In this document: piece by piece, positions 1-1,593 of the stretch
How the letters are laid out: every line of letters begins with the position of its first letter
How positions within the stretch are numbered: position 1 is the first letter of the stretch
Assembly (NCBI GenBank): GCA_045545475.1
Contig: JAZQAZ010000031.1
Location: 1-64,000, forward strand
Reading direction: 5' to 3'
Origin: Clostridia bacterium
GTDB lineage: Bacteria > Bacillota > Clostridia > CAKSNL01 > HGM11501
Length of the DNA: 64,000 nt
Program-made: the position numbers and the translations under genes
The notes under the pieces: model-generated
The model's database searches: none
What the model was told of the DNA's origin: nothing
The model's input: the letters and a program-made list of their open reading frames with translations, nothing else

Positions 1-1
1 A

Positions 2-41
2 GAAAAAGCGACAGTAATCGACAGATTTCTGTCGCTTTTTC
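2..41. terminator. Bidirectional intrinsic terminator-like hairpin
   Basis: GAAAAAGCGACAG(2-14)...CTGTCGCTTTTTC(29-41) inverted repeat with A/T tails; the upstream gene lies outside the window. Confidence 0.7.
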
Positions 42-43
42 AA

Positions 44-215
44 CGAAATAAATCCTTGCGGATTTGTGAAATGTGCTTCGCACGTGAAATACACCTTCGG
101 TGTATGAAATATTCGCTACGCGAATGTGGATTTATTTCATTTCACAGAAAACGAAGTTTTCTATTTCACAATTTACGAAGTAAATTATTTCACATCAACG
201 AAGTTGATATTTCAC
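44..215. repeat. Mirror-symmetric multi-hairpin repeat element (REP/MITE-like or structured ssDNA/ncRNA)
   Basis: Four (GT)GAAAT+hairpin units, then three ATTTCAC+hairpin units and a final ATTTCAC. Stems differ but pair perfectly; loops are TTC/TAC/TTGC on the left and GAA on the right. Confidence 0.85.
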
Positions 216-255
216 TAAAACCCCTTGCATCTATTTTGTAGCAGAAAGCCAAAGA

Positions 256-281
256 AAAAGCCACCTGCAAGGGTGGCTTTT
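256..281 (-). terminator. Intrinsic terminator downstream of CHAP gene
   Basis: AAAAGCCACC-TGCAAG-GGTGGCTTTT just past the stop at 286. Confidence 0.75.
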
Positions 282-285
282 GTTA

Positions 286-1593
286 TTATTCGTTTTTAAC
301 TGAAAAAAGATACCATGGACTCATTACACCGCTACCGGAATTGCTTACAGGAGTGATGGCGGCATAATATGTACCATCCGGGAGACTTAGCGTGTAATAT
401 GTCGACGATACAGCTAATGAATCAATTATCTTAGGATTTCCCTCAGTTGATTCCATAACGTCCAATAAATAGCTTTCGGTAAAAGGTGATGCTTCCCAGG
501 CAATGGTGGTTCCGGCATTTGTTGTTTCGATATTCCATATGCAAACACCTGATGTTGTTCCAAAAATAATAGGTTTTGAAAGTTCGCTGGATAAATCCGC
601 ATCTTCGGAGGTTATGTAAGCATAGTAAGTTTCACCTTCCGGAAGAAGAAAGGTTGCGGAAAGCGATTCCGTTCTTACCGGGGGTGCAGCGTCGTAAAAT
701 CCTTCTTTTGCATTTACTATGCGGCATACATAGCTTGTGGCACCTAAGGCTTTATTCCAGGAAACAGTAGTTTTTGTTCCGGAAGATTCGATTTTTACAT
801 CGGAAGGCGGTAATAATTCAGGCTCTCCGGCTATATATATGAACCCCAGGAAAGTATAGGCGGATGAAGCACTTAAATTAGGATCGCTTGCACTTCTTGT
901 TCTTGTTTTGAAATAAAAGGACTTCCAGCCGGATTCTGATGTTATTATGGTATCTCCGTCTACCGATTCAACAACAGCAACGTGACCGGCACCGCCTCTC
1001 TTGCTCCAAACGGCGATGGCTCCCGGAGCGGGAATGTCTCCGTACGGATAAAAACCGTTACGGCGATTGTAGTCATACCATTCTCCTGCATTACCCGAGG
1101 AGAGGTTTGGGGCTGTTCCCAGTATTTCATACGCTCTGCCGTAAGCGTAGCAAGTGCAGTTTCCGATGTTCTTTTCAGTCATACCGAAGCCGGAGTTATA
1201 AAATATATTCTTTGAAAAATAGTAGGGATTGTTTCTCTCTGGAGCAGATAATCTGGGAGTATAACTGCTTTCTTTATGCGATACATTAACGGGAGAAAAG
1301 CTCTCTTTTGTGTTATATAGAAAATAATCTTCACTGCCTGCTCTGTTTTTTACAAAGCATTTAAAGGTGTTTTCGTCGTGATATTCAAGACGTATGATAT
1401 CTCCTCGTTGCAAAATTATGGATGAGATTCTACTTTCAGTATCGTAATGATAAAGGTCTCCGTTTTCTGTATAATAAATATTATTTTCGTATATGATTTT
1501 ATAGTTATCTGTGTAAGCATCATGAGCGTATGATAAAACCAAAGATGCAATTAATGAAAAAATCAAAATTGCAGGCAATATTATCTTTTTCAT
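286..1593 (-). CDS. Secreted CHAP-domain peptidoglycan hydrolase with C-terminal fibronectin type III-like domains
   Basis: Signal peptide; GNCTCYAYGR (catalytic Cys), GNAGEW, GAIAVW..GHVAVVE (His), SESGW; two FN3-like segments (TVSWNKALGATSY; TIAWEASPFTESY). Confidence 0.85.
   Translation of the reverse strand: MKKIILPAILIFSLIASLVLSYAHDAYTDNYKIIYENNIYYTENGDLYHYDTESRISSIILQRGDIIRLEYHDENTFKCFVKNRAGSEDYFLYNTKESFSPVNVSHKESSYTPRLSAPERNNPYYFSKNIFYNSGFGMTEKNIGNCTCYAYGRAYEILGTAPNLSSGNAGEWYDYNRRNGFYPYGDIPAPGAIAVWSKRGGAGHVAVVESVDGDTIITSESGWKSFYFKTRTRSASDPNLSASSAYTFLGFIYIAGEPELLPPSDVKIESSGTKTTVSWNKALGATSYVCRIVNAKEGFYDAAPPVRTESLSATFLLPEGETYYAYITSEDADLSSELSKPIIFGTTSGVCIWNIETTNAGTTIAWEASPFTESYLLDVMESTEGNPKIIDSLAVSSTYYTLSLPDGTYYAAITPVSNSGSGVMSPWYLFSVKNE

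Follow-up and report, generated by a model that had tools for sequence, protein, structure and literature searches.

Gut-1 (RF01706) is held in Rfam as a model of 77 positions with a gathering score of 50 bits, and the relevant passages of Weinberg et al. (2010, Genome Biol 11:R31, PMC2864571) list it as a likely non-coding RNA that is not cis-regulatory and occurs in the 'human gut only'. The literature searched names Gut-1 only in that founding paper and in a 2026 structure-prediction benchmark, and gave no description of a tRNA-docked array cassette partnered by a four-helix-bundle gene. In this work we analyse an array of seven hairpins at positions 44-215 of a 64,000-nucleotide stretch from a Clostridia bacterium (contig JAZQAZ010000031.1, positions 1 to 64,000; the whole stretch is referred to as the window). 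The array is a copy of the catalogued Gut-1 motif, and window 2-251 is a mobile cassette inserted exactly behind the CCA end of a tRNA-Arg gene. The true extent of the element, window 2 to about 251, goes beyond the 44-215 given in a preliminary description of this DNA, and the recurrent physical partner of such arrays is a four-helix-bundle gene of the PF05635 family, not a transposase.

Window 41-115 on the plus strand matches the complete Gut-1 model (positions 1-77 of 77; 79.5 bits, E 1.5e-16), scoring above the cut-off and covering the first three hairpins (h1-h3), which are joined by GUGAAAU spacers and, as in the founding set, come from gut bacteria. The preliminary description had held that a match to an Rfam family would remove novelty, and as a motif the array is therefore not new. 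The Gut-1 model, however, stops at h3, whereas the window element adds a fourth hairpin (h4), a closing helix (P1) and a complementary second half (half B, after half A). It also carries a terminator-like hairpin and a CCA-ending tail that are absent from the model, it docks at tRNA ends, and the other spacer motifs found in relatives are poorly scored or missed by the model.

Several other systems, as they are generally known, share parts of this design. Elements of the REP, BIME and REPIN families (repetitive extragenic palindromes), which are served by RAYT enzymes (REP-associated tyrosine transposases), likewise consist of extragenic palindromes in inverted pairs with a short conserved motif beside a variable stem, and the location past terminators between convergent genes and the presence of RAYT-like genes in the genome add to the resemblance. 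Unlike them, the window element has no GTAG-type motif, its copies are few and diverse, the three RAYT-like genes inspected are not flanked by its units, and the family docks strictly at tRNA CCA ends and is linked to a four-helix-bundle gene. Palindromic elements derived from IS200/IS605 also insert in one orientation 3' of a short target without a long duplication, as the cassette appears to do, and have hairpins near both ends, but no TnpA or TnpB lies in or beside the cassette and its seven-hairpin internal array has no counterpart among them. Integron attC cassettes are similarly small, promoterless and capable of stacking in tandem at one docking point, with a recombination site conserved in fold rather than sequence; the present cassette differs in docking at a tRNA CCA end and in carrying its array at the 5' end, and a likeness between GTGAAAT and the attC core GTTRRRY was dropped, no integron integrase having been seen.

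Islets of tyrosine integrases share insertion at tRNA 3' ends and, in some loci, a far-side copy of the tRNA end (21 nucleotides in one relative, G002, and 18 nucleotides at a tRNA-Trp), yet the cassette is 250 nucleotides long and without an integrase, its repeat in the window is only GCCA, and many different tRNAs are served. Finally, PF05635 (TIGR02436) is the family of 23S-rRNA-intervening-sequence proteins, whose four-helix-bundle members we take to be Avd-like; the genes behind the arrays resemble these in being small, in coding for four-helix bundles and in lying within stable-RNA operons beside highly structured RNA. Avd itself is the nucleic-acid-binding cofactor of diversity-generating retroelements. 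The array cassette departs from these systems in having neither a nearby reverse transcriptase nor a template and variable repeat pair, and in occupying a tRNA 3' flank rather than a 23S rRNA helix.

Insertion of the cassette behind tRNA-Arg

Genomes are denoted below by G (G000 being the window's own, of 2.74 Mb in 50 contigs with 40.8% G+C), contigs by C and extracted loci by L. Window base 1 is the last base, the A of CCA, of tRNA-Arg(CCU) (anticodon cct in the DNA; ARAGORN and Rfam), in line with the preliminary description's proposal to look for a tRNA just left of the window. The rest of this tRNA is on contig C48, which ends with the same 141 bases (C48:54471-54611) as make up window 1-141; this places the assembly break inside the array; on the extracted locus L002 the tRNA occupies 1385-1461 and Gut-1 1501-1575.

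The preliminary description had also proposed a comparison with orthologous empty sites, and one was found in the relative G004. Here a tRNA-Arg(cct) that is 99% identical is followed directly after its CCA by a AAAAAAGCCACC...GGTGG terminator and the orthologous gene, the flank at 5-697 aligning with window 255-945 at 70% identity over 700 nucleotides (E 1.7e-87; blastn and pairwise alignment), and the terminator-like hairpin of the cassette is absent. Since the CCA of G004 runs straight into the native terminator and the orthologue, window 2 to about 250 is extra DNA, which starts right after CCA and ends ...GAAAGCC(A). A DNA search for the orthologous flank in five relatives returned nothing useful, and the tRNA itself served as the anchor.

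The same cassette is found at other tRNAs. Window 2-221 is identical at 207 of 220 positions (94%) to a cassette behind tRNA-Pro(tgg) in another species, G010, to which the terminator-like hairpin has travelled with the array; the differences include one swapped hairpin and a compensatory change from G-C to A-T in the first hairpin. At the tRNA-Arg of G002, the native terminator is followed by a small module, a 21-nucleotide copy of the tRNA 3' end and a cassette of another spacer class (GTGATAT), and at tRNA-Trp of the window's genome an 18-nucleotide copy of the tRNA end precedes the cassette. Cassettes also stack, one on contig C37 of G002 beginning directly behind the ...GCCA tail of another. 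Furthermore, a GCATCTA box stands 12-16 nucleotides past the last spacer in 10 of 50 elements (0.08 expected by chance), and in cargo-bearing copies a similar box stands behind the cargo.

In the window the cassette opens with a terminator-like hairpin (2-41, plus strand) in which AAAAAGCGACAG (3-14) pairs with CTGTCGCTTTTT (29-40) before a CAA, the terminator-like call itself falling at 19-34. The array follows, and then a tail (216-251) made up of TAAAA, the GCATCTA box (227-233) and a 3' end, ...GAAAGCCA, that recreates the CCA end; a hairpin is thus present near each cassette end (2-41 and about 226-243). Beyond the cassette lies the original two-way terminator (256-281, both strands) shared by tRNA-Arg and a convergent CHAP-domain gene (286-1593, minus strand), the latter being context only. 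The sole open reading frame across the element (56-241, 61 amino acids) has no Pfam match, and this copy is without a cargo gene, only 70 bases separating the array from the stop of the convergent gene.

Architecture of the array and its variation among copies

Half A of the array, on the plus strand, consists of a first spacer CGAAAT (44-49), h1 (AAATCC/ttgc/GGATTT, 50-65), a spacer GTGAAAT (66-72), h2 (GTGC/ttc/GCAC, 73-83), a second GTGAAAT (84-90), h3 (ACACC/ttc/GGTGT, 91-103), a spacer ATGAAAT (104-110) and h4 (ATTCGC/tac/GCGAAT, 111-125). The central segment GGATTTATTTC (128-138) is the reverse complement of 45-55 and forms the 3' strand of helix P1, the 5' strand of which (44-55) is made of the first spacer and the 5' arm of h1; it therefore rivals the 3' arm of h1 for one and the same 5' arm. 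The inverted-repeat arms as a whole (42-55 and 128-141) measure 14 nucleotides and are 93% complementary. In half B, four ATTTCAC spacers (139-145, 163-169, 187-193 and 209-215) alternate with h5 (146-162), h6 (170-186) and h7 (194-208), each of which has a C-GAA-G loop. Base for base, these hairpins, loops and spacers agree with the preliminary description, which had rightly seen perfect Watson-Crick pairing in all seven stems, conservation of structure rather than of stem sequence, linkers that are reverse complements between halves, C-GAA-G loops in all three right-half hairpins, and a non-coding site between two terminator hairpins. As an observation apart, h4 followed by GGATTTATTT (109-127) was flagged as terminator-like on the plus strand; a transcript stopping there would be a half-A-only RNA, near the extent of the Rfam model, although the U-rich run after h4 is not kept in other spacer classes.

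The two halves are predicted to fold into a ladder, in which four rungs would form between the GUGAAAU-type spacers of half A and the AUUUCAC spacers of half B, h1-h3 and h5-h7 would protrude at three fully paired four-way junctions, and h4 would cap the end. In the alternative fold, P1 (45-55 with 128-138) would close half A at the expense of h1. For positions 41-220, the seven hairpins alone give -28.4 kcal/mol, P1 with hairpins -35.9, the full four-rung ladder -43.0 and the minimum free energy structure, a ladder-like variant, -48.1. All of the ladder is paired except the loops and the stretch 126-138 between h4 and the first half B spacer, so that the three four-way junctions are perfect. 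The RNA fold of window 1-225 reaches -72.2 kcal/mol against -39.7 +/- 3.6 for shuffled sequences (z -9.1; 0 of 200 as good), and the DNA fold of 41-220, which predicts the same ladder, has a z of -6.5 (0 of 200 shuffles). A scan of the whole genome for at least three copies of a 6-mer followed by at least three of its reverse complement returned nine places, eight of them arrays and one a false positive (C20:201-459, within a collagen-like Gly-X-Y coding repeat of GGGTCC... units at C20:100-560), and none in a block-shuffled genome. The feature is strongly selected and far from chance.

Across copies, the spacers of the two halves are complementary in at least eight classes: GTGAAAT/ATTTCAC, ATGAAAT/ATTTCAT, GTGATAT/ATATCAC, GCGATAT/ATATCGC, GTGAAGT/ACTTCAC, GCTAAAT/ATTTAGC, ATGATG/CATCAT and ATGAATT/AATTCAT. 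In all 23 cleanly parsed elements, drawn from four classes, the half B spacer is the reverse complement of that of half A; only these clean parses were used, as regular-expression and local-fold parsers were too strict or over-extended the stems. The array is one two-part element whose spacers change in step between halves. Complete arrays of the TGAAAT class always place the GTGAAAT-type half first and the ATTTCAC-type half second, the reverse order never occurring in the scan of this genome. In an alignment of 50 sequences, 85.0% of rung cells are paired, against 78.3% after shuffling (0 of 500 shuffles reach the observed value) and 26-53% in slid controls, with changes on both sides at 17 of 26 rung pairs.

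Helix P1 was followed through a three-way signature, in which a central segment 78-89 nucleotides downstream complements both the first spacer and the 5' arm of h1. This signature occurs 37 times in 75 loci and never in shuffled ones, two of the 37 being false hits in low-complexity sequence, and its arms are diverse (AAATCC, TTTGCC, TTGTTCC, TCGCC, CCGTC and others). Hits dropped before the elements were counted were the low-complexity ones in L005 (minus strand, at 2141) and L023 (at 2609), and one in Microcoleus (L115). Changes on both sides are seen at 10 of 11 P1 pairs in 50 distinct elements, a set selected on this very pairing; because these sequences were picked by an exact 10-nucleotide P1 match, their figure of 96.5% paired is circular, and the valid controls are the absence of matches in shuffled loci and the variety of arm sequences.

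Orthologues of one locus offer a further view of stem change. At a Thr-Tyr tRNA locus shared by the window's genome (L003), G010 (L034) and G002 (L035), the flanks are identical and one whole hairpin is replaced: two species share TTGATGC...GCATCAA as h5, where the third has AGAAACC...GGTTTCT. A like swap affects h7 between the window cassette and that behind tRNA-Pro in G010. These replacements suggest that a hairpin is substituted as a whole and does not change one base pair at a time.

Distribution, tRNA docking and PF05635 genes

The window's genome holds eight Rfam-detected Gut-1 loci, the window included, and three more loci with other spacer motifs; weak matches on C2 and at C20:129586 (E 0.1-0.5) were dropped as they look like coding sequence. 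Apart from the window copy, several of the arrays (on C4, C8, C9, C18, C41 and C42) also lie within 3 kb of a contig end, which makes these copy numbers lower bounds. Gut-1 was detected in 17 of 41 genomes (the window's own, 12 of the 13 others of the same family and 4 of 27 from other families) and in 31 of 151 genomes forming an even sample of the class. By title, the Gut-1-bearing genome bins belong to Clostridia, Eubacteriales, Ruminococcaceae, Oscillospiraceae, Acutalibacteraceae, Christensenellaceae and Faecousia, from human and animal guts, while single matches in unrelated phyla look like chance.

Docking at tRNA ends is a general property of these copies. Five of the eight Rfam-detected loci start 33-44 nucleotides past a tRNA, occupying 5 of the genome's 24 tRNA or tmRNA operon ends, and a sixth starts behind the 18-nucleotide tRNA-Trp copy. 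With the window added, a same-strand tRNA ends 33-47 nucleotides upstream in 16 of 35 elements of relatives, and the same holds for 10 of 22 elements in genome bins; of the others, some are found at the end of a contig and some follow a G+C-rich hairpin or a promoter. The docking tRNAs are those for Arg, Pro, Tyr, Lys, Cys, Leu, Glu, Gln, Asn, Thr, Ala, Gly, Trp and Met.

Other features of these tRNA flanks were seen alongside. A second module stands behind the native terminator at 7 of the 24 tRNA operon ends of the window's genome (C2:91186, C4:1079, C4:20229, C20:13876, C34:58042, C40:59441 and C47:10989), with further examples at L272 (150-326) and, in relatives, at L256 and L020. It opens with the reverse complement of the tRNA T-arm (GGAyTTGAAC...), has two hairpins inside and matches no Rfam family at E up to 0.01. 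At tRNA-Trp in G000, tRNA-Arg in G002 and a tRNA-Cys-like end in G011, this module ends in an 18-21-nucleotide copy of the tRNA 3' end, and at those three sites the array cassette docks behind that copy. In L020 (G011:C10, about 1400-2100) a whole two-part array is repeated three times in tandem with a period of 230 nucleotides behind a tRNA-Cys 3'-end fragment, the repeat junction falling inside the first hairpin and not at CCA. At a tRNA-Glu(ttc) of the window's genome (C34:27446-29156) there is a cassette-type first hairpin, CCAGGAAAAAG...TTTTTCAA, with no array, and the same tRNA pair in G003 (L025, G003:C114) has an array of the GTGATAT class; about 1.2 kb from this site lies a RAYT-like gene whose reading frame is whole in G003 but broken in G000 by two TAA codons.

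On both C48 and C47, the array is closely followed by a gene for a PF05635 protein of 115-116 amino acids. Each of the four PF05635 genes in the window's genome has an array just upstream, which belongs to the GTGAAAT class in two cases and to the GCTAAAT and ATGATG classes in one case each. In relatives, an array was found upstream of 14 of 32 PF05635 loci with a strict detector, or 17 counting three further loci, the upstream sequence being too short to judge in 2 of the 32. Nearly identical modules of the GCTAAAT class in genomes of two families (G009 and G039) suggest that they have passed from one family to the other. In the cassette of this class in the window's genome (C18:2286-2610), a second small open reading frame follows the four-helix-bundle gene before a GGCATCTAAAA tail box, and may be variable cargo.

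Proposed mechanism, rival explanations and implications

The Gut-1 membership, the insertion, the docking at tRNA ends, the gene linkage and the complementarity of the spacers are observed, and from them we infer the strand that acts, its ladder fold and its binding partner. Cassettes that carry no integrase dock behind tRNA genes in gut Clostridia, the window copy sitting exactly past the CCA of tRNA-Arg(CCU) and ahead of that tRNA's original terminator with its three parts, namely the terminator-like hairpin (2-41), the array (44-215, its first half Gut-1) and the tail (216-251, ending GCCA). The array would act as one folded single strand, most likely an RNA in the sense of the tRNA, which transcription would reach by reading past the cassette's terminator-like hairpin, and in fuller copies this RNA would be the leader of the downstream gene. 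There, the PF05635 gene lies directly behind the array and its protein would be the probable binder of spacers or rungs. The window copy may have lost this gene or never had it, and would then be inert or be served in trans by the same-class paralogues on C47 and C48. We consider this overall account, of a cargo-less mobile tRNA-docking cassette whose array is a folded single strand partnering a PF05635 protein, to have about an even chance of being correct.

As to which strand acts, a TATAAT box stands directly before the first hairpin in several copies and a terminator follows the array in one. At four loci (G005 C2, G011 C10, G012 C16 and G000 C18) only a ribosome-binding site separates the array from the four-helix-bundle open reading frame, which obliges a transcript of the gene to run through the array. 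Neither strand of window 1-400 showed a promoter-like site. In a metatranscriptome run (X1), 9% of sampled words were present and contigs span only 30-73 and about 162-193; they run on into unlike sequence and so come from relatives' copies, remaining silent on expression here. We favour a folded single strand, most likely plus-strand RNA, as the acting form, at close to even odds.

A number of points weigh against this proposal. The one RNA run gave only short conserved pieces, as contigs, and no direct evidence of a transcript, the cassette's own hairpin resembles a strong terminator past which read-through may be low, and the TATAAT box abuts the first hairpin, so that a transcript would probably start inside it. 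Among 784 stem positions, 718 are Watson-Crick, 5 G-U, 18 A-C and 43 other, and such near-pure Watson-Crick stems are unusual for RNA and fit selection on DNA or on both strands; movement of the element as a unit likewise counts for action as DNA or on both strands. Wobble pairs were not used to assign the strand because their results contradict one another, with 10 G-U against 2 A-C in P1 (plus strand), 22 against 48 in the rungs, and 5 against 18 in the hairpins read in the GAAAT sense. As the spacers within an element are all alike, the register of the ladder cannot be fixed and a shift by one rung fits equally well, and shared ancestry or recognition of one motif in double-stranded DNA could yield the same spacer complementarity. 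The link to PF05635 is qualified as well. Among 150 genomes, PF05635 is present in 27 and not found in 4 of those with Gut-1, and present in 24 and not found in 95 of those where Gut-1 was not found, counts that overstate the association since kin are not independent; the 24 genomes with PF05635 and no Gut-1 match may reflect other spacer classes missed by the Rfam model. A four-helix-bundle gene stands beside the array in a minority of loci, 12 of 75.

The main rival, which we hold to be possible but rather unlikely, is a single-stranded DNA element of the REP/REPIN kind or derived from IS200/IS605, moved in trans by a RAYT-like HUH enzyme for which the hairpins would be DNA recognition structures and the tetranucleotide NCCA the target, insertion taking place on its 3' side. 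It is kept as such because the fixed-orientation insertion exactly 3' of GCCA, with no longer duplication and with a cassette that itself ends in GCCA, fits the HUH mechanism; a hairpin lies near each cassette end, the stems are Watson-Crick on both strands and the single-stranded DNA fold scores as given above. The genome has RAYT-like genes of about 170 amino acids with HUH and Tyr motifs and a Pfam Y1_Tnp match, although their 58-69 bits to the NCBIfam model REP_Tyr_transpos fall under its cut-off of 80. All 11 RAYT-positive genomes among the 41 relatives are also Gut-1-positive, and in the 150 genomes the association is positive (16 with both, 9 with a RAYT-like gene only, 15 with Gut-1 only, 110 with neither), yet no RAYT-like match was found in 15 of 31 Gut-1-positive genomes. 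Classical RAYTs are flanked by their REPs, whereas no array units lie within 400 nucleotides of three RAYT-like genes inspected in the window's genome, and cases of RAYT and array about 1.5 kb apart (G003, G049) were set aside as no more than chance. Some 11 copies per genome in at least four spacer classes, with unlike stems and no burst of near-identical copies, the persistence of orthologous copies at the Thr-Tyr locus in three species, and the many copies that lie behind promoters and act as gene leaders all count against this explanation. The preliminary description's proposal of a non-autonomous REP, REPIN or MITE-like (miniature inverted-repeat transposable) element accordingly stands as to a non-autonomous insertion, given the orthologous empty site, but its REP/RAYT link is weakly supported, the co-occurrence it suggested examining being positive in association and seen in only 16 of the 31 genomes.

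Less probable still is an array that acts as double-stranded DNA, in which a sequence-specific protein, perhaps the class-matched four-helix-bundle protein, would bind a 7-bp motif present in four direct and four inverted copies, so that the cassette is docked, recombined or repressed. Within an element the seven or eight spacers all share one motif that differs between classes, a uniformity that pairing alone does not need, and in promoter-linked copies the first hairpin holds a spacer-like inverted repeat at the TATAAT box, as an operator might; what this leaves unexplained are the perfect hairpins with compensatory stem changes and whole-hairpin swaps, and the covarying P1. Two facing small-RNA genes (Gut-1 on the plus strand at 41-115 and on the minus strand at 217-134) are very improbable, even though the gathering score is passed on both strands and Gut-1 is listed as a likely non-coding RNA in the passages of Weinberg et al. 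(2010, PMC2864571) cited above. The minus-strand match, the reverse complement of half B, reaches only 50.7 bits and owes its likeness to Gut-1 to stems that are palindromic and spacers that are complementary, so that both strands look the same, window 1-400 shows no promoter-like site for either gene, other copies have their promoters, terminators and downstream genes all oriented as half A is, and the halves never occur in opposite order. We give equally little credence to a passive insulator, whose extra hairpins would reinforce the stop to transcription between a strongly expressed tRNA gene and the genes beside it. The element does lie between a tRNA and a convergent gene with a terminator of its own, but the empty site of G004 copes with one two-way terminator, the array hairpins have no U tracts, and many copies lie behind promoters and ahead of a gene that needs expression.

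Three further candidates were rejected. The sole RVT_1 gene of the genome, which might have signalled a diversity-generating retroelement, lies on C10, where neither an array nor a PF05635 gene is present. The five tyrosine recombinase (Phage_integrase) genes of the genome are not beside arrays, and the open reading frame of the insert has no family match. A type III toxin-antitoxin system resembling ToxIN would have tandem RNA repeats that are nearly identical, ahead of a gene for an endoribonuclease toxin; here the units differ in stem sequence and the downstream gene, where present, is PF05635.

Returning to the tRNA-docking cassette with its folded strand, its means of movement might be an RNA intermediate that uses the CCA 3' ends of mature tRNAs, an idea we rate as improbable. 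The junction at the last base of many tRNAs would correspond to the boundary of the mature tRNA, which is unmarked in DNA, and the cassette ends in a small hairpin and ...GCCA like a tRNA 3' half, on which new cassettes would stack. A trans-acting reverse transcriptase would use the cassette RNA as its template and then jump to the CCA end of a tRNA, with the Avd-like four-helix-bundle protein on the four-way-junction ladder as a possible cofactor. Neurospora retroplasmids provide a precedent for such tRNA CCA junctions. Movement of this kind, if true, would represent a new class of bacterial retro-mobile gene cassette.

Together, these findings place the catalogued Gut-1 motif as just the first third of a larger two-part element, which itself heads a small mobile cassette whose docking point is exactly the 3' end of a tRNA. 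The element also accounts for assembly breaks at the tRNA loci of these gut bacteria, as the contig ends inside this array. Furthermore, it is tied to the four-helix-bundle family PF05635. Gut-1 has been an orphan since 2010, and this link offers concrete experiments on two unexplained features together.

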